A stretch of DNA of 8,564 nt from positions 1-8,564 of the IMG/VR virus record IMGVR_UViG_2695420596_000003, one strand, 5' to 3'. A program made the translations under genes and the position numbers. Below are positions 1,391 through 8,564 of this stretch, piece after piece (positions within the stretch are counted from its first letter, which is position 1; the number at the start of each line of letters is the position of its first letter). The notes below the pieces were generated by a model. That model did no database searches. It saw only the letters and a program-made list of their open reading frames with translations, and was not told where the DNA came from. This DNA comes from a virus (lineage: Duplodnaviria > Heunggongvirae > Uroviricota > Caudoviricetes).

Positions 1391-3778
1391 TCAGCTGATA
1401 CTGATACCTGCTGTGGATTTTTTCATCACCACAACCAGCAGATCGCTGATACTTGCTGTGGGATACCAGTTATTTACCAGCCATGCTGACACCGAAAACT
1501 CCAGCGTCATGTGACCGTGACCGGCAGGCATATCAATAACGCCACTGTAAATCAGCGTATTATCCAGCGCGGTACGGTTATAAATTTCAGCACCGTTTTT
1601 CCGCACTATCAGACGGCATGAGGAGTAAATATCAGTATGCTCTCTCTCATGTTTAGCGCCGCTGAATGCCACCGCCGGAATAACAATTTGCCGGTCAAAC
1701 GGCTGATCGTCATAAACCCTGACGGTAATGGTCCCTGATGGCCACCGCTCCGGTGCACGGGAATCCCGGGGGAAAGCTTTGCCCACTGTTTTAACGAGAT
1801 CGCCTTCAATCTGGTTCGCGGACAGTTTTCCCAGAACCCGACAGTTCTCGTTAATCGTGACGTTGTTGAGCGTCCCGGAATTCGCATTCACGTTACCGCT
1901 GATATCAGCATTTCTTGCGGTCAGCCTGCCCTCCGGCGTCAGGGAAAACGTCGGGGGATTGCCGGACGAGGTGATACTCACCGCAAACAGCCGCTTCAGG
2001 AACACATCGTTCATGAACAACTGATTCCCCTGCGCCACAAATAACGGCGTGGTGTTGCCGTCCTCCGGGTTAATCATCGCAATACGGTCAGCCAGCAGCA
2101 GTATGTTGCTCAGGGGCTGGCCATCAGTATCCTCAATCCCCGCTCCAATACCGGCAACATAGGGTATGCCATTTTTTGTTTTCTGTACCTTCAGCATGTA
2201 AAGTGCAGCAAGGTCATCATTTGTGTCCTTCTGCACGCGCTGTATCTGCTGTATGGTGGCGCTCTGGTCTTCCAGCGTTTTACTGACCGTCTGTGTGATT
2301 TCATTGCGGGTTTCGGTGATGGTGGTCTTCATCTCCGCCATCTCATCCGCAAGCTGGCTGTTGTCTATCAGCTCCCACAGCCCCTGAGCCAGATGCAGTT
2401 TTCCTATTTTTTCCCGAAACAGTCCCAGATACCCTTCTGCATCATTGCTGGCCCGGCCACTGGCTTCCACAAAAGCAGATTTCCCCACCAGGTTGACGCT
2501 GCGCACGTAAAACCAGAAATCCTTCCCGGGCTTAATGTGCGGGCCGGATACACTCCACTGACTGCCGGTCCCCAGATAACGGGCAGAGGTTTCCACCTGA
2601 GATATGTCTGCGATTTTTGCCTCCGAAAACCAGAACTCAAACTGTACCGTCGGGTCATACACCGCAAGACGCGGGACCGCTGTTATCTGAAAATAGCCCG
2701 GTGTCAGCTCAATCGTGGCGGGTACCGCAGGTGCATTAATCCTGAACGTGGTGGTGGCCGGTTCGCCCTGCTGGCCATAACTGTTAATTGCCCTGACTGT
2801 CAGGGTGTATTCCCCGAGCGGCAGGCCGCTGAAACGGTGCTCCGTGTCTGCGGTGATGGCGGTGGTCACCAGTCTGGCATCCGTTCCCTTACCACTGGTC
2901 AGGCGCAGACTGAAGCGCACGCCCTTCACCACCCGCGGCGTGTCCCATTTAGCCTGCGCCAGATACTGGCCGTCAGCTGCACTCACCTCCACCGTCAGGT
3001 GCTGTACTGCCGGTGGGATGACGCTGTTCAGGGAACCTGACTGCGGCTCAAAGCGGGCACCGTTATCCACGATGGCTTCTTTTTCCGGTACGTGCTGCAC
3101 CGCCGTGATGGCAAAGGTGCCGTCCGTGTTTTCCCGGACGGAGACACAGCGGAACAGGCGACGGCGCAGTGACGGCAGGGACCAGAGCGTCTTATTCTGC
3201 AGCTGGTCCGAGGTGCTGTCCGCTGTCTCCCGGACCATCCGGATGTTAAAGGGCCGCTCAGGCAGATTATCCAGAATCACCGACGCCAGAAACTGCGAGG
3301 TGGTCTTGCCGTTAATGGTGACATCCTTTTCCGTCACCCAGTTACCGTTACGCTGTAACTGAATCAGCAGGCGGACGGATGTCGGGTTTCGGTCACCCTT
3401 TGACGTGGTCTGCACCAGTGACTGCACCCCGAAGGTGACCCGCAGGCGGTCAATGTTCGCGGATGTAATGGTGCGCGTCACCGGCTTTGCCTTCGTCACT
3501 TCCACGCCCAGTGCGGTTTCCGCCCCGGAGGACTCAAAGCCTTCAGGTGGTGTCTGCTCCTGCTCCCCGGCGCGCCAGACCGCGGTCACACCATGTATCA
3601 CAGGATTACCGTCCGTGTCCGTCAGCGGGGTTTTGTTCACCAGGATACTCTGCAGCCCCTTCACCGGACCTTCAATCGGCCCTTCACCAATGGCGTCAAT
3701 CACGCTCATCATCTGCGTGGATTTGAGATTGTCCTTCGCCTCACGAGGTGTGTGCGCCCTGCCGCCACCTTTACCCAT
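1391..3778 (-). CDS. J: Tail tip / host-specificity protein J (central tail fibre), shortened 795-aa form
   Basis: N-terminus [22 protein letters not shown]... and downstream blocks ([34 protein letters not shown]; [27 protein letters not shown]; [18 protein letters not shown]; [20 protein letters not shown]) match lambda gpJ as remembered. SD GAGAGG upstream of ATG at 3778. Length is about 340 aa short of lambda gpJ (1132 aa from memory). Confidence 0.9.
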
Positions 3779-3911
3779 AATGTTCCTCTCAATTGGTATT
3801 ATTAATCGCAGTGATAGGATATTGCACAGCTATTGCGCGATATCATCAGAACGCTGTTTGTTACCCTGTAACCAGCAAGCTCAGTCTGTTAACGGAATTA
3901 ATGAGGGTTTT

Positions 3912-4439
3912 ATGAAATGTAAAATCATTGCTGCCATTGCCATGCTGACAGCAGCATCATGCGGATACGCAGCAGAACAGGAAGTCCCAATGAACCTTGT
4001 CAGTGCTGACGGAAAAGAAGTCAGCATTGGAAAAATAACCATTCAGGAGACCCCCTACGGTCTGCTGTTCACACCAGCCCTTCACTCTCTGTCTGAAGGC
4101 ATTCATGGTTTTCATGTGCACGAAAAAGGAAATTGCGCCCCGGCACTGAAAGACGGAAAACCGGTCGCAGCATTATCGGCTGGCGGTCACTTTGACCCGA
4201 AAAACACCGGCAAACATCTTGGCCCCTGGTCTCCGGATGGACACCTGGGCGACCTCCCTGCGCTGTTCGTGACGCATGACGGAAAAGCGAACTACCCGGT
4301 CCTGGCCCCGAGACTGAACTCATTAAAAGAGATTAAAGGGCGTTCTCTCATGCTTCATGCTGGCGGTGATAACCATCATGACCATCCGGAGCCCCTGGGC
4401 GGTGGTGGTGCGAGAATGGCCTGCGGCATCATTCAATAA
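3912..4439 (+). CDS. sodC: Periplasmic Cu/Zn superoxide dismutase (prophage-borne SodC)
   Basis: 175-aa product with a signal peptide ([20 protein letters not shown]) and Cu/Zn-SOD motifs [31 protein letters not shown] and C-terminal [19 protein letters not shown] 5 nt upstream of ATG at 3912. The longer ORF-track entry 3405..4439 is an antisense-to-J extension of the same frame. Confidence 0.92.
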
Positions 4440-4445
4440 TCAGTC

Positions 4446-4474
4446 AGGTAAGGGGCGGGCCCCTTACCTTTATT
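4446..4474 (+). terminator. Putative rho-independent terminator of sodC
   Basis: 10-bp GC-rich stem aggtaagggg (4446-4455) / ccccttacct (4460-4469) with loop cggg, followed by TTTATT. Confidence 0.6.
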
Positions 4475-4586
4475 CCTCAGGACGATAAATCCTTTCTCCC
4501 TGAAAAGAACGGCACATCCTCCCTCTCTGAGTTAATGTTTTTGTCGTGACATAAGAATAATTCCTTACACTCAATCTTCGTAACTC

Positions 4587-4630
4587 TCCCGCAGTTCCTG
4601 TCCGTGAGCACTGCGGGATTTTTTCGCTTT
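4587..4630 (+). terminator. Second plus-strand rho-independent terminator abutting the 3' end of gene I
   Basis: 9-bp stem tcccgcagt (4587-4595) / actgcggga (4610-4618) with a 14-nt loop, followed by TTTTTTCGCTTTT (4619-4631). Confidence 0.5.
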
Positions 4631-5310
4631 TATGCCTGCCGCCCGATAACCACCACCTTCCCGTCACCGCCTTCATCACGGGTACTGATGTCCTGGGATA
4701 TACGGCGGGAGCCAACCAGCATTTCACCGTAAGGCACCGGCATCGGGTTCCCCTGGGCAATCATGTTATCCAGCGAGGAAAAGTACGTGTTCTGTCTGCC
4801 GTTATCCGTGCTTTTGTACTCCGGTACTTTAGCCTTCGGGGCCAGCATCTGAGCCACACCACCCAGAATCATGCTGGCCCCCAGAGAAAACAGCATCGTG
4901 GTGGCAGAAAAACCACCGGCTGCCAGGGCTGAACCCCATAACGCCATTGATGCCCCGGCCGTGAAGAACGACCCCACGATGGCTGCCGCCCCCAGCACAA
5001 TCTGCAGTCCGCCCTTTCCGGCTCCGGCCAGTCGCGGCACAATATGGATGACCGCCCCCTCACCCAGAGGTTCGTGAAGACGGGCGTACACCGCCTCCGG
5101 TGCCGTGTCCTCACCGCGAATACGTATCTGGTACCAGCCTTCGTTCATCTGACGGCGGAATCCCGGCATCTGCATCGACAGGGCACGGATGGCTTCCGCT
5201 GCCGTGTTCACATACAGGCTGAGGCGGCGGCCAAATCGTTGTAAATCCCCGTGAAGGCAGATACGTGCCAGTGGCGGTGACGCCAGGCTGAATGCGTTCG
5301 TCGTTGCCAT
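4630..5310 (-). CDS. I: Tail tip assembly protein I
   Basis: 226 aa: MATTNAFSLASPPLARICLHGDLQRFGRR ... QIVLGAAAIVGSFFTAG ... GASMILGGVAQMLAPKA ... NTYFSSLDNMIAQGN, matching lambda gpI as remembered. Overlaps K by 103 nt, the same arrangement I recall for lambda K/I. Confidence 0.9.
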   Translation of the reverse strand: MATTNAFSLASPPLARICLHGDLQRFGRRLSLYVNTAAEAIRALSMQMPGFRRQMNEGWYQIRIRGEDTAPEAVYARLHEPLGEGAVIHIVPRLAGAGKGGLQIVLGAAAIVGSFFTAGASMALWGSALAAGGFSATTMLFSLGASMILGGVAQMLAPKAKVPEYKSTDNGRQNTYFSSLDNMIAQGNPMPVPYGEMLVGSRRISQDISTRDEGGDGKVVVIGRQA

Positions 5311-5951
5311 TTTTCGGAATACCTCTCCCGTTTACTCAGTTGTTCAGGCAGATGGTGAAGCAGCTCACCGTTGCCGCAGTATATGGCGGCATGATTGGCC
5401 ACCGATGCGCCAAAGCAGCACAGCAGGATATCGCCAGGCTGTGCGGAAGGCAGGGAAATCCTGTAAAAACCAGTCGCCTCCATATTGTCCAGGTACAGGT
5501 TCTGACCGTTGCGCCACCAGTCATCCTCACGCTCAAAATCCGGCATATCAATTCCCGCCAGATGGTAGGCATCCCGGAACAGCGTGTAACAGTCCGTCAC
5601 CCCGTGCTCAAAGCGCCGTCCTGTCAGATGTGGCACACAGCGGAATTTATGAATTTCCCCCCGGCAGACCAGCCACCAGGACAGTGCACTTTTTATCTGC
5701 AGCCGCCGGTCGGCCTCGCTCAGCCAGGGCAGACCACCGGGATGACTGTGGACCAGTGCCACAATCTCCCCCTGCATCTCTGCCCGCAGCCAGTCTTCCG
5801 GTGCAATACGAAAATACGCCTCCGGCTCTGCAGAGATATTCACACAAGGGATATACCGCTCCCCCTCCGGCGTTCTCACCACGAAGCCGCACGACTCCGC
5901 AGGCACACACCGCCGGGCATGCGCCAGAATCGCTGATTCTGTCTGTGTCAT
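5208..5951 (-). CDS. K: Tail tip assembly protein K (JAMM/MPN metalloprotease-like plus NlpC/P60-like domains)
   Basis: 247 aa starting MTQTESAILAHARRCVPAESCGFVV, matching lambda gpK as remembered. JAMM motif HSHPGGLPWLSEAD is present; Cys in GVTDCYTL and His in ANHAAIY fit an NlpC/P60 Cys-His pair. Confidence 0.9.
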   Translation of the reverse strand: MTQTESAILAHARRCVPAESCGFVVRTPEGERYIPCVNISAEPEAYFRIAPEDWLRAEMQGEIVALVHSHPGGLPWLSEADRRLQIKSALSWWLVCRGEIHKFRCVPHLTGRRFEHGVTDCYTLFRDAYHLAGIDMPDFEREDDWWRNGQNLYLDNMEATGFYRISLPSAQPGDILLCCFGASVANHAAIYCGNGELLHHLPEQLSKRERYSEKWQRRTHSAWRHRHWHVSAFTGIYNDLAAASACM

Positions 5952-5956
5952 TGGAT

Positions 5957-6655
5957 TTACTGCGAAAGTTTGTTAATGGAAAGGAAACCGCCAAAATTAG
6001 CCACCATGCCGCGCATCTCACACCCGCGCATGCACTTGCTGCATCTGTCCTTACGGATATCGGTGGTGGGTTTATCGAACTCATCCGCCACCGCAGGACC
6101 GTTATACCCGCATTCATCTCCCCGGTAATCCCACATACAGGTGTTCGCCAGCATGATGCGACCGGGAAACAGCGCTCCGTCCGTCTCCGTCGGTGTTGCC
6201 AGCACAAACGAGGCTGTCATGGCCGTCAGCTCTGACATCTGCTCCACCACCCAGCGGTCGCTCAGCTCCTGCTCCGGGTCCGCTTCCGGATTGCCCGCCA
6301 CAAAATTCACCGCATCCAGAAAACGCGCATACACCCGGCGGCGGACCACCGTGGCACCCACCAGGCTCTGCAAATCCTCCGCCATCCCGGTGACAAGACC
6401 GAACAGATTGGACACCGTCAGCGACGGGCGGGCACTGCAGCCCTTTCCGTTCATCTCAAAGCCACTGCCGTCAATCGGGTATGCCTGATATTGCCGCCCC
6501 TGCCAGGTAACCGCCTCCCCTTTTTCATTCAGCTCATTGCAGAAAAAATACCGCTCACCACCCTGTACCGTCAGGTCGATTTCCCAGAGTACCACCCGCG
6601 GTGACTGCTCTGATTTAACCGACTCGTTCAGACTTTCTTCGTGAATATCCTGCAT
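5957..6655 (-). CDS. L: Minor tail protein L (tail tip, Fe-S cluster protein)
   Basis: 232 aa: MQDIHEESLNESVKSEQSPRVVLWEIDLTVQGGERYFFCNE..., with a C-terminal cysteine cluster (CMWDYRGDECGY ... DRCSKCMRGCEM) as in lambda gpL. Start overlaps the M stop (ATGA). Confidence 0.92.
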   Translation of the reverse strand: MQDIHEESLNESVKSEQSPRVVLWEIDLTVQGGERYFFCNELNEKGEAVTWQGRQYQAYPIDGSGFEMNGKGCSARPSLTVSNLFGLVTGMAEDLQSLVGATVVRRRVYARFLDAVNFVAGNPEADPEQELSDRWVVEQMSELTAMTASFVLATPTETDGALFPGRIMLANTCMWDYRGDECGYNGPAVADEFDKPTTDIRKDRCSKCMRGCEMRGMVANFGGFLSINKLSQ

Positions 6656-6984
6656 CAGTTCACCACCTGCTTAAACTCCGCGCTGAATTCAACCCGCAGC
6701 ATGCGAACCCGTGATGACCAGGCGGCACAGGTCACCTTTATCTGCCGCCAGGCATAAGGCGGTGTCCACAGAAACGCCTTCCAGCCACCGTGCTCTGCCA
6801 GGAATGCCTCCAGATGTCGGGCCTCCTCCCGGGTCACGGAAAGCGTCACACGGTATGTTTTCAGGTCAGCATTCAGCCCCGCCGCCATACGCTGCGAATA
6901 CCCGTCACCAAAACGCACTTCACGCACCGATGGCTGCGAGTTCACCTCCATATCCGGCTTCACTTTCCAGCGAAATGTTTTCAT
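6655..6984 (-). CDS. M: Minor tail protein M
   Basis: 109 aa: MKTFRWKVKPDMEVNSQPSVREVRFGDGYSQRMAAGLNADLKTYRVTLSV..., matching lambda gpM in sequence and length as remembered. Start overlaps the H-remnant stop by 4 nt. Confidence 0.9.
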   Translation of the reverse strand: MKTFRWKVKPDMEVNSQPSVREVRFGDGYSQRMAAGLNADLKTYRVTLSVTREEARHLEAFLAEHGGWKAFLWTPPYAWRQIKVTCAAWSSRVRMLRVEFSAEFKQVVN

Positions 6985-7229
6985 CGCCTGCCTCCGGAAA
7001 AGACGCCGCCATCACGCATCTGCGCCTGAATCTCATCCTGCGCCCCCTTGCGGGCCATGTCATACACCGCCTTCATCAGCTGCGGCCCCGCCTGTCCGTT
7101 GGTGCCGTCGTTCTGAATCACCACGTGATTGTTCTGATTAAAACTAATGCCTTCCGCCCGCCGCATCTGCGCCGGACTTCCGGCACCGCCCACATAACCA
7201 CCTTCCGCATAATGCAGTTGTGACAGCGC
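6981..7229 (-). pseudogene. H: 3'-terminal remnant (~82 codons) of tail tape-measure gene H
   Basis: Frame ends ...NNHVVIQNDGTNGQAGPQLMKAVYDMARKGAQDEIQAQMRDGGVFSGGRR* and overlaps the M start as lambda H does, resembling the tape-measure C-terminus. The frame is closed by an in-frame stop at 7230-7232 only ~83 codons upstream; the 'M' in the ORF track is a GTG. A full tape-measure protein is ~850 aa. Confidence 0.8.
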
Positions 7230-7236
7230 TCATCAT

Positions 7237-7266
7237 ATTATTCAGTTGTTGCTCTGATATATTCAT
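7237..7266 (-). pseudogene. A: 5' stub (~10 codons) of terminase large subunit gene
   Basis: ATG at 7266-7264 overlaps the Nu1 3' end, as the lambda A start overlaps Nu1. It encodes MNISEQQLNN (lambda gpA starts MNISNSQVN from memory), then runs out of frame into H-derived sequence and terminates after ~40 codons. Confidence 0.5.
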
Positions 7267-7744
7267 CAAGTAAATCCGGTAATTTATCCCCTGCCCGCGC
7301 ACACTGATTTGCCCCCTTAGCAATAAGGGTTTTCAGATGGTCAAGATGGCGCGGTGTTAAATCAGGAAACTGTCGCTGCATGGATAAAGGGATGGAATCA
7401 AGCGTACTGGATAACGCCATTGCCAGCTTACTGAGGGCAAAAATACAGAATCCGGTGTCAATAAGCTTACCTTCGGTTACCTGATTTTTAAGTTTTTGAG
7501 CTACGGCCTGTTCTTCTGTCAGTTCAGCTCTGGCCCGAAGCAGCCTTTCCTCCAGATCGCCCTCGTCATCAGGTATTCTCTGATTGTGTTGTCGCCGCTC
7601 GCGATCTATCTCCAGTACAGTTTTAACGTCATAAAAAACTTCCCTCCCCCGACGCTCAACAGGAGGAACGCCCCATTTATCAAATGCCTGAACAGATATA
7701 CCGATGGAGGAGGCCATATCACTTTTATTCAATAAAAAGGCCAT
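7238..7744 (-). CDS. nu1: Terminase small subunit, Nu1-like (NohA/NohD-like)
   Basis: C-terminal half ...TGFCIFALSKLAMALSSTLDSIPLSMQRQFPDLTPRHLDHLKTLIAKG...LPDLLDEYIRATTE aligns with lambda Nu1 (TAFCTFVLSRIAGEIASILDGLPLSVQRRFPELENRHVDFLKRDII...LLSEYIEQSG) as remembered. Start chosen at ATG 7744 (MAFLLNKSD..., preceded by GGAGAGGAG) by alignment with the lambda N-terminus; the ORF-track start at 7849 and the ATG at 7762 are alternatives. Lies ~190 bp from cosN as in lambda. Confidence 0.8.
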   Translation of the reverse strand: MAFLLNKSDMASSIGISVQAFDKWGVPPVERRGREVFYDVKTVLEIDRERRQHNQRIPDDEGDLEERLLRARAELTEEQAVAQKLKNQVTEGKLIDTGFCIFALSKLAMALSSTLDSIPLSMQRQFPDLTPRHLDHLKTLIAKGANQCARAGDKLPDLLDEYIRATTE

Positions 7745-7938
7745 CTCCTCTCCATAAGCCATCGATAAAAAGCGATACAACAACCATGTGTTTTTACAAA
7801 ACCATTTGATATCATTGACATTTTTCGCATTGACGACATCAAAACACATCGTAAGGTTGTTGTATTTATTTTATTTTCACCTTACTTATCAATTAGATAT
7901 ACCAAACAATTAAACAACAACTCCCCCTCAAAAAATCT

Positions 7939-8001
7939 CATAAATAGCGAAAACCCGCGAGGTCGCCGCCCCGTAACCTGTCGGATCGCCGGAAAGGACC
8001 C
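7939..8001 (-). other. cos: Cohesive-end site cos (cosN 12-nt overhang at 7960-7971, flanking cosQ/cosB-proximal sequence)
   Basis: Reverse complement of 7939-7971 reads GGGCGGCGACCTCGCGGGTTTTCGCTATTTATGA, identical to the first 33 nt of the lambda left end as remembered. 7972-8001 (reverse complement GGGTCCTTTCCGGCGATCCGACAGGTTACG) matches the lambda right end. Confidence 0.85.
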
Positions 8002-8008
8002 ACGAAAA

Positions 8009-8023
8009 TGATAATAATTATCA
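8009..8023. promoter_or_regulatory. Perfect 7-1-7 palindrome TGATAATAATTATCA matching the Fur-box consensus TGATAATnATTATCA
   Basis: Read directly from the sequence; the inverted repeat extends to 8-1-8 (ATGATAAT A ATTATCAT, 8008-8024). Lies in the divergent intergenic region between cos and the YlcI-like gene. Confidence 0.35.
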
Positions 8024-8178
8024 TCTACATGAGGTTTATCACGACATGTGTGTACGCCATCAAACCACGAGAAATAATCAATTATTACGCAGGTATCGTA
8101 TTAATTGATCTGCATCAAATTAGCGTAAAAGCAACTTCAGATAATACAAATCAGCAACACTGAATACGGGGCAACATT

Positions 8179-8403
8179 ATGTCATCAAAGAACAGAACCC
8201 GCAGAACAACAACCCGCAACATCCGATTTCCAAACCAGATAATTGAACAAATTAACATCGCTCTTGACCTGAAAGGTTCAGGTAATTTTTCAGCGTGGGT
8301 TATTGAAGCCTGCAGAAGAAGATTAATTAATGAAAAATATTCTCAATTTGTACCCAACAAAGACAAACACGACCAGAGCACCTGTTCAGACAGGTTTACT
8401 TAA
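8179..8403 (+). CDS. Small YlcI/YnfO-family (DUF3950-like) prophage protein, possible DNA-binding protein
   Basis: 74-aa ORF MSSKNRTRRTTTRNIRFPNQIIEQINIALDLKGSGNFSAWVIEACRRRL..., transcribed divergently from Nu1 across cos, the same arrangement as ylcI/nohD and ynfO/nohA in E. coli K-12 cryptic prophages (from memory). Weak SD (ACGGGG) upstream; terminator downstream. Confidence 0.6.
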   Translation: MSSKNRTRRTTTRNIRFPNQIIEQINIALDLKGSGNFSAWVIEACRRRLINEKYSQFVPNKDKHDQSTCSDRFT

Positions 8404-8422
8404 ACGACTTATATATGACACA

Positions 8423-8450
8423 AAAAGCGACCACTAAAGTCGCTTTTTCT
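8423..8450 (+). terminator. Putative rho-independent terminator after the YlcI-like gene
   Basis: Stem aaaagcgac (8423-8431) / gtcgctttt (8439-8447) with a 7-nt loop; T-run 8444-8448 followed by CTTAT. Flanking A- and T-runs could allow bidirectional function. Confidence 0.5.
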
Positions 8451-8564
8451 TATGGTAACAGGCAATAACTCTCTCAGATATTTTTTAGCATTTTTTTGAC
8501 CGCGCGTTTCCGGACGTATTCTGTTCTCCTGTCCCTTTATATCGTCGGAATACCCGCCGCTCTT

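Follow-up and report, generated by a model that had tools for sequence, protein, structure and literature searches.

The widened spacer between the tail genes I and J in this prophage DNA is very probably occupied by two separate elements, the known moron sodC-F, which encodes a Cu,Zn superoxide dismutase (Cu,Zn-SOD), and a promoterless gene of the PasB family. On this explanation, which we consider the best overall, the slot would hold two plus-strand modules that are independent of each other and antisense to the tail operon. Module 1, from 3779 to about 4523, would be the sodC-F moron, transcribed in the lysogen from its own promoter, and module 2 (4524–4626) would be the gene of a PasB-family Hfq-dependent small RNA (sRNA), a resident of the same slot in relatives that do not carry sodC. 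The sequence analyzed (the window) is an 8564-nucleotide stretch of DNA, and all coordinates below refer to it unless stated otherwise.

The window is the tail-tip end of a lambdoid prophage, and its tail genes lie on the minus strand. The ORF list and Pfam matches place there Lom (725–1324), the tail tip gene J (1391–3778, 795 amino acids, with the Pfam J domains), the tail assembly gene I (4630–5310, Pfam Lambda_tail_I), K (5208–5951), L (5957–6655), M (6655–6984), a 70-amino-acid C-terminal remnant of the tape-measure protein H (6981–7193), and a Nu1-like small terminase gene (7238–7849), all on the minus strand. An earlier note, made from the letters of the window, had drawn attention to the wide gap between I and J and had read it as one self-contained lysogenic-conversion module, with a signal-peptide Cu/Zn superoxide dismutase on the opposite strand, its own Shine–Dalgarno sequence, and two plus-strand hairpin terminators. 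The gap indeed measures 851 bp (3779–4629), compared with 60 bp in lambda (I ends at 15444 and J starts at 15505), and the gene, its Shine–Dalgarno sequence, and both hairpins with T-rich tails (4446–4469 and 4587–4618) are present. The notion of a lysogenic-conversion module stands insofar as sodC-F is known prophage cargo; it does not stand for the 851 bp as one cassette, the I-proximal ~100 bp of which are found in relatives without sodC. The sodC and PasB-like genes are convergent with I, and sodC is divergent from J. With the tail operon on the minus strand and sodC on the plus strand, late tail transcription would run antisense through sodC, as the note had also pointed out. In the window this conflict is probably moot, because the prophage is defective. 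J carries an in-frame internal deletion of 1086 bp with its junction at 3180/3181 (blastn against strain H19; positions 10596 and 11681 of the sequence L001 are joined), and an intact relative can be matched only as far as 7211, the point at which the H remnant meets the Nu1-like gene, so that the prophage has lost its head genes and most of H. Within this decayed prophage, sodC is undamaged and does not differ from the reference allele.

The sodC gene (3912–4439, plus strand) encodes a precursor of 175 amino acids. The Shine–Dalgarno sequence GAGGG (3903–3907, plus strand), from which sodC would be translated, lies 4 nt ahead of the ATG and is invariant in an alignment of three cassette lineages. 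The protein matches Sod_Cu (PF00080) over the full length of the family (positions 3–133 of 133, E = 3.9e-32), and its best solved relatives in the PDB are bacterial Cu,Zn-SODs (E about 1e-62). Compared with 1z9n and 1z9p, the metal-binding motifs HGFHxHE, GGHxDP, HxGDLP, and HAGGDNH and the C-terminal MACG are kept. The translation of 3912–3971 reads as a signal peptide with the lipobox AASC, identical to the SodC-F leader. All 175 residues are identical to those of ECs_1989 of Escherichia coli O157:H7 Sakai, and the codon that is polymorphic between the F1 and F2 forms specifies Leu in the window (nucleotide 335 of the gene, window position 4246, is T). The Sakai prophage Sp10 has the order I, inverted sodC, J, and lom with the same spacer sequence as the window, and strain H19 shows the same neighbors of sodC. 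The window gene is thus the already characterized prophage SodC-F of the enterohemorrhagic E. coli (EHEC) type. Because the protein is identical to SodC-F and the I–sodC–J piece is found in 544 of 5426 complete E. coli genomes, this part of the finding was already known; it is the rediscovery of a characterized lysogenic-conversion gene, and its worth lies in correct annotation.

The properties of SodC-F in O157 were described by D'Orazio et al. (2008, PMC2569942). There are two prophage copies, F1 and F2 (in CP-933R and CP-933V of EDL933), and the protein is produced in log phase and also anaerobically. SodC-F, identical to the window protein, has a superoxide dismutase activity of 19380 U/mg; it is a very stable dimer that resists proteases and surpasses the chromosomal SodC in activity. 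It is partly membrane-anchored via the lipobox AASC, its leader is processed by both signal peptidases I and II, and sodC-F mutants show raised sensitivity to H2O2. By its identity to this protein, the product of the window gene would be exported by a signal peptide that either signal peptidase can cleave and would act in the periplasm and at the membrane as a stable dimeric Cu,Zn-SOD that clears exogenous superoxide. Compared with SodC-F1 and SodC-F2 of O157:H7, the gene itself shows no difference, and the host prophage of the window is a remnant.

The presence of sodC between I and J varies among otherwise matching relatives. The I and J flanks were matched in 1875 complete E. coli genomes, 544 of which have sodC between them; these are the genomes that contain the 1401-bp piece 3500–4900 over at least 80% of its length. 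The I–sodC–J piece was found in 41 records at a DNA identity of at least 99%. The phage records include two Stx2a phages with sodC, compared with about 149 Stx phages in which the flanks are present and sodC is missing. Given this presence and absence among flank-matching genomes and phages, sodC is polymorphic cargo that did not belong to the tail cluster from the start; it is a moron, a cargo gene that some phages have, and others lack, between two genes that adjoin each other in relatives. An arrangement common to all relatives, which the earlier note had named as grounds for giving up its reading, is not what these genomes show. When genome contigs were searched for SodC, the matches listed comprised only chromosomal SodC proteins (Serratia, Pseudomonas, and others), with at most 68% identity, and have no bearing on the prophage setting. 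Two further types of cassette were found in the same slot. Type B (L171/L172) has 80% protein and 78% DNA identity to the window and occurs in six complete E. coli genomes, and type C (L169/L170) has 87% protein identity and occurs in about 10 genomes, including three plasmid records. The three lineages, with the window type as type A, are about 78–82% identical at the DNA level.

Comparison with sodC-less relatives, which the earlier note had proposed, fixed the boundaries of the sodC unit. The spacer of the window was aligned with those of a sodC-less Stx1a phage, the enteropathogenic E. coli (EPEC) strain E2348/69, and the Sakai prophages Sp15, Sp14, and Sp11. On the side of I, homology runs past the I stop codon and through the second hairpin to about 4524; the sodC-less spacers share about 4524–4629 with the window and nothing to the left of it. 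On the side of J, homology ends exactly at the J ATG, so that even the J ribosome-binding site differs between spacer types. In the window, this site lies in the region GAGAGGAA (3779–3792, minus strand), which is supplied by the sodC block; apart from carrying sodC, the block would thus also provide the J ribosome-binding site. By this alignment, the unit restricted to sodC-bearing spacers is 3779 to about 4523, and the sequences compared indicate that it replaces the J-proximal spacer, the J ribosome-binding site, and the PasB promoter and is not a simple insertion.

The segment shared with the sodC-less spacers (4524–4626, plus strand) belongs to the PasB sRNA family, as judged from a profile match, position, and architecture. 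An nhmmer profile was built from 22 PasB variants, with the window's own subfamily left out; it matched 4531–4624 on the plus strand with 39 bits (E = 4.9e-12), and the next match had an E value of 5.6. The segment has a U-rich 5′ part, an A-rich stretch, a conserved single-stranded AAUCUUC (4573–4579), a terminator stem-loop, and a run of six U residues that ends at 4624, 5 nt before the I stop codon (4630–4632). A scan of IMG/VR for the terminator pattern gave at least 123 copies in at least 119 DNA stretches, whose variants grade into one another and share one architecture. The terminator had been sought among known RNAs: AgvB, AsxR, Esr41, and STnc100 are all in Rfam and none of them match hairpin 2, and a search of all Rfam families at E values up to 1 gave on the spacer only a chance-level match to STnc400 (E = 0.65). 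A minus-strand ORF of 44 amino acids (4477–4611) was dismissed as a gene, as the PasB variants show indels that are not multiples of three and lengths of 91–100 nt.

PasB of E2348/69 is an 83-nt RNA that is Northern-validated and Hfq-dependent and has many RIL-seq partners (Pearl Mizrahi et al. 2021, PMC8550237). Its gene (NC_011601.1, 1466343–1466261) lies between I (end 1466255) and J (start 1466496), opposite to the tail genes. The window copy likewise lies in the I–J spacer beside the I stop codon, antisense to the tail genes, and shares the U-rich 5′ part, the A-rich stretch, the AAUCUUC motif, the CCCGCAG/CUGCGGG terminator, and the U-run; unlike E2348/69 PasB, it belongs to another sequence subfamily, lacks the native promoter, and has sodC upstream. 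The TTCACA-16-TATAAT promoter predicts a start for E2348/69 PasB that is about 20 nt upstream of the published 5′ end; this difference would reflect processing of the mature RNA or the approximate nature of an end taken from coverage.

In Sakai, the Hfq-binding RNAs EcOnc22, EcOnc23, and EcOnc24 were reported in Sp15, Sp14, and Sp11, respectively, with an RNA of about 85 nt that is destabilized without Hfq (Tree et al. 2014, PMC4104026). The published coordinates at face value would place them near the J start. This placement was rejected on account of a genome-version shift of about +137 nt: the Rfam match of AgvB is at 1941920–1941981 in the current Sakai version, compared with a published peak at 1941783–1941835, and homology mapping of EcOnc42 and EcOnc21 agrees with the shift. 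After the correction, the three peaks fall on the PasB-like bodies of the sodC-less spacers in Sp15, Sp14, and Sp11, which strongly suggests that EcOnc22, EcOnc23, and EcOnc24 are probably members of the PasB family.

The two hairpins accordingly have different owners. A terminator scan of 3500–4900 gave six sites, compared with 1.2 expected. The first hairpin (4446–4469, −17.4 kcal/mol, z = −3.1) forms, with its tail, the predicted intrinsic terminator of sodC (4446–4475, plus strand), which consists of a 10-bp G+C-rich stem, a 4-nt loop, and the tail UUUAUU; sodC transcription would end there, at least in part. The second hairpin (4587–4618) has a 9-bp stem followed by T6 (4619–4624) and a fold z score of −3.3. 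It lies in the PasB-family segment, and the assignment of both terminators to sodC in the earlier note is thus withdrawn. On the minus strand, both hairpins lack a T-run, and for this reason neither should stop late tail transcription.

The reading of the note, in which 3779–4629 was inserted whole and the hairpins are tandem terminators of sodC, draws on the location of both hairpins downstream of sodC on the sodC strand and on their constant association in type A cassettes. It is nevertheless very improbable. The segment 4524–4629 occurs in sodC-less spacers with a strong promoter of its own, and a validated sRNA is among its homologs. The type C cassette and that of the Salmonella prophage Fels-1, which occupy the same slot, have no PasB segment, and type B keeps the PasB promoter. 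If the sodC-less spacers were regarded as deletions of sodC, the promoter found upstream of PasB there would speak against it. Because some cassettes keep PasB together with its promoter and others have no PasB at all, sodC and PasB are better understood as independent modules sharing one slot.

The pattern of variation further defines the mobile block. Twenty-seven distinct sodC cassettes of the window type were compared. The 5′ end of J (3600–3778) has 30 variable sites in 179 positions, and the count falls to 1 of 133 in the sodC upstream region (3779–3911), 2 of 528 in the coding sequence (3912–4439), 0 of 36 in the first terminator, and 1 of 48 in the linker (4476–4523). It is 14 of 103 in the PasB-like segment (4524–4626), where all variable sites but one are at or past 4585, and 10 of 61 in the adjoining part of I (4630–4690). 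The sodC block thus has four variable sites in 745 bp, compared with about 16% of sites in the flank ends of J and I, and the low-diversity block extends from 3779 to about 4584. Such a uniform block amid variable flanks points to a single allele that has recently spread, by homologous recombination, into tail regions of diverse background. The positions of the breaks indicate crossovers on one side in the 5′ end of J and on the other in I and the terminator of PasB; the block would move among prophages by recombination through J on one side and through PasB and I on the other, with J and I as its left and right flanks. The mobile block can in this way be given exact limits, from the J start codon to within PasB.

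These data also bear on the possibility that the tail lineage had sodC from the outset and that the sodC-less spacers arose by loss. Three diverged sodC cassette lineages of E. coli and the Salmonella prophage Fels-1 have sodC in the same slot and in the same inverse orientation, so its association with the slot is old or recurrent. The near-uniformity of the block between flank ends with about 16% variable sites speaks for a recent spread; further points against ancestry are its G+C content below that of the flanks (0.44–0.49 across 3751–4200 compared with 0.59–0.62 in the flanking tail genes), the absence of sodC from lambda and most relatives, and the insertion of sodCI elsewhere in Gifsy-2, between lom and L. 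We consider an ancestral sodC improbable and retain the view of sodC as a moron.

In the sodC-less spacers, PasB is preceded by a conserved TTCACA-16-TATAAT promoter. Among the matches listed, 75 of 115 sodC-less copies score at least 9.5 of 12 for this promoter; the window and all 14 window-type sodC-linked copies among the matches listed score 5–5.5 of 12, which is no better than background. In these cassettes, a linker specific to the window type (4476–4523, plus strand) stands in place of the promoter. Compared with type B, about 45 nt including the −35 hexamer are absent from the window type, CATCCTCCC is found where the −10 region CTTATAATT is expected, and homology resumes at the predicted PasB start site. 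The type B cassette, which is rarer than that of the window, has the order sodC, terminator hairpin, intact PasB promoter, and PasB; PasB is absent from the type C cassette and from the sodC spacer of Fels-1. In the predominant sodC cassette, the PasB promoter would therefore have been deleted or overwritten, with the transcribed part and the terminator retained. The PasB-like copy would then yield no RNA, which is the possibility toward which we lean, or be transcribed solely at the 3′ end of sodC transcripts that pass the first terminator. In the Sakai CRAC data (one condition), no orphan Hfq site is listed at the sodC-linked copy in the spacer of Sp10, which fits silence.

A functional coupling of the two modules is possible, if doubtful. 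In this case, the PasB-like RNA would be derived from the 3′UTR of sodC: transcription would read through to the PasB terminator, RNase E would release an Hfq-binding sRNA of ~85 nt, and its output would follow that of sodC. The transcribed part and the terminator of PasB are complete, and the point at which homology breaks off coincides with the predicted start. The strong stem and the modest UUUAUU tail of the first terminator make some read-through into the PasB-like part plausible, and the U-tracts of types B and C are poorer still, being weaker or absent. The 5′ end of E2348/69 PasB just past the U-run, beyond the predicted start, is compatible with processing, and the commonest sodC cassette, found in the 544 genomes, has the PasB-like arrangement. 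On the other side stand the lack of a called Hfq site in Sp10 and the strength of the first hairpin, and the retention of the RNA part can be explained without selection, by recent origin and by its use as a recombination flank. The stronger form of this idea, that the predominant cassette captured PasB by promoter deletion and that an Hfq sRNA now has no other source than the 3′ end of the sodC mRNA, through read-through and processing, appears unlikely; if it were true, a prophage sRNA regulon would have come under the promoter of an antioxidant virulence gene. The locus offers a simple test of whether moron insertion can rewire an sRNA into a 3′UTR.

With the sodC moron and the promoterless PasB gene taken as separate modules, what is new is the assignment of the second terminator to the latter; this is a refinement and not a new kind of system. 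No mention of hairpin 2 as part of a promoterless PasB gene was found in the literature searched, and sodC has zero occurrences in the 2026 survey of PasB by Zhu, Shabalina and Storz (bioRxiv 10.64898/2026.05.13.724894). Promoterless PasB-family copies behind sodC are present in about 10% of the complete E. coli genomes, which matters for surveys that count PasB genes as functional. The I–J spacer can be viewed as a modular cargo slot for sodC and the PasB sRNA gene.

As to the transcription of sodC, the earlier note had seen no convincing sigma-70 promoter, and our consensus scan agreed, with no two-hexamer site in 3500–4900. Promoter prediction in 3779–3911 gave a more favorable result only when the scan was relaxed: a candidate extended −10 element, TGgTATTAT (3794–3802, plus strand), is conserved as TGaTATGAT in both diverged lineages L169 and L171. 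It would start the transcript at about 3808–3811, with a leader of about 100 nt. In O157, a 299-bp fragment from upstream of sodC supports RpoS-independent lacZ expression (PMC2569942), and the element falls inside the homolog of this active fragment. The conservation and the location suggest that this extended −10 element is most likely the sodC promoter. The relaxed scan also returned TTGGTA-16-TAGGAT with a TG, which ranked below TGgTATTAT because its −10 is not kept in cassette types B and C and was rejected. The longest invariant block of the leader and upstream region in the alignment of the three cassette lineages is TTGCGCGATATCAT (3833–3846, plus strand). It includes a −10-like TATCAT (3841–3846), with no usable −35 at 15–19 nt, and may act as a promoter in place of the extended −10 element or as a site for a regulator; the TATCAT block is as well conserved as that element. 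By analogy with Salmonella sodCI, a PhoP box was also sought; CTGTTTG-N4-CTGTAAC (3856–3872) has only one good half-site, and no convincing box was found. The literature searched on ECs1989, sodC-F1, and EcOnc22 yielded no transcript mapping of the sodC locus.

Two Salmonella prophages provide the closest comparisons. SodCIII of Fels-1 (STM0924) is likewise a signal-peptide Cu,Zn-SOD encoded in inverse orientation in the same I–J slot, but it has 60% identity to the window protein and a different upstream region. In Fels-1, sodC is separated from I by 53 bp without a PasB-like element, and the J-proximal hairpin is retained. SodCI of Gifsy-2 (STM1044) is also a prophage-borne periplasmic Cu,Zn-SOD whose gene is antisense to the tail operon, and it is a PhoPQ-regulated virulence factor. 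Its identity to the window protein is 59%, and unlike sodC-F, its gene lies between a lom-like gene after M and L. As in SodC-F, the protein is dimeric and protease-resistant (PMC2569942).

The sodC-F module resembles the lambda morons lom and bor in being an extra gene with predicted transcription signals of its own, lower G+C content, expression in the prophage, and a function in host fitness; the moron concept itself reportedly goes back to Juhala and colleagues in 2000. Unlike lom and bor, sodC opposes the late operon, and its slot is shared with an sRNA gene.

Deletions have removed the head genes, the gene for the large terminase subunit, and most of the tail genes, making the window prophage defective, with its sodC kept intact. 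The match to an intact relative ends at window position 7211. The tape-measure gene H is represented by its last 70 codons only (6981–7193), and a Nu1-like gene for the small terminase subunit (7238–7849) lies immediately upstream of this remnant. The A+T-rich stretch upstream of the Nu1-like gene (7850–8564; G+C 0.36–0.42) is possibly the cos region, and it contains a 74-aa ORF on the plus strand (8179–8403) with a match to DUF3950 (E = 1.3e-17). The J gene (1391–3778, minus strand) encodes 795 aa rather than ~1157 aa. Comparison with strain H19 revealed an in-frame internal deletion of 1086 bp (junction at 3180/3181), by which roughly residues 200–561 are lost, and the reading frame is still open.

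[quoted passage not shown] The window has T at this site (4246), and its gene is thus the SodC-F1 allele; C was found there in 2 of the 27 distinct window-type cassettes. The type C cassette, whose protein shows 87% identity and which is not accompanied by PasB, the Hfq-dependent sRNA family of the I–J spacer, also occurs on 63–93-kb plasmid records (H139 and H140; NZ_CP128933.1 and NZ_AP027635.1), possibly phage-plasmids. Two Rfam matches in the window were far under the gathering score and were taken as chance: the eukaryotic lncRNA ST7-AS1_2 inside lom (756–860, E = 0.037) and STnc400 over the sodC stop codon and terminator (4403–4479, E = 0.65).

A hairpin near the start of J (for example, ACAGGCACCCTCCGGGGTGCCTGTTGTTTTCT), whose T-run falls on the strand of the tail operon, is common to sodC-less spacers, lambda, and Fels-1. 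It is located at 4235–4262 in the Sakai Sp15 locus (L007), at 1270–1290 in lambda (L268), and at 4866–4890 in Fels-1 (L006), and is also present in two further compared loci (L003 and L004). It resembles a terminator or attenuator within the operon, placed ahead of J. This hairpin is replaced in all three E. coli sodC cassettes.

When coordinates are shifted by ~+137 nt from NC_002695.1 to NC_002695.2, EcOnc22, EcOnc23, and EcOnc24 (Tree et al. 2014) seem to be the homologues of PasB in Sakai. The corresponding PasB-like loci are in Sp15 (L007 4345–4420), Sp11 (L009), and Sp14 (L010). This link is absent from table S6 of Pearl Mizrahi et al. (PMC8550237) and from the accessible part of the 2026 PasB survey text.

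The I–J slot has a third type of filler, a J-proximal module of ~200 bp found in L025 and L032 of IMG/VR and many others; among the IMG/VR matches listed, it accompanies ~37 of the 123 PasB-like copies. The module has its own plus-strand terminator (AAACCCCGGTATCAGCAGATACCGGGGTTTTCTTT), sits upstream of an intact PasB promoter and gene, and may be another small transcript. In one IMG/VR contig (L136), the sodC terminator is separated from the PasB-like gene by an IS-like insertion followed by a transposase-like ORF. The insertion, at ~3608 (window 4519), is only a few bases away from the site of the missing PasB promoter.
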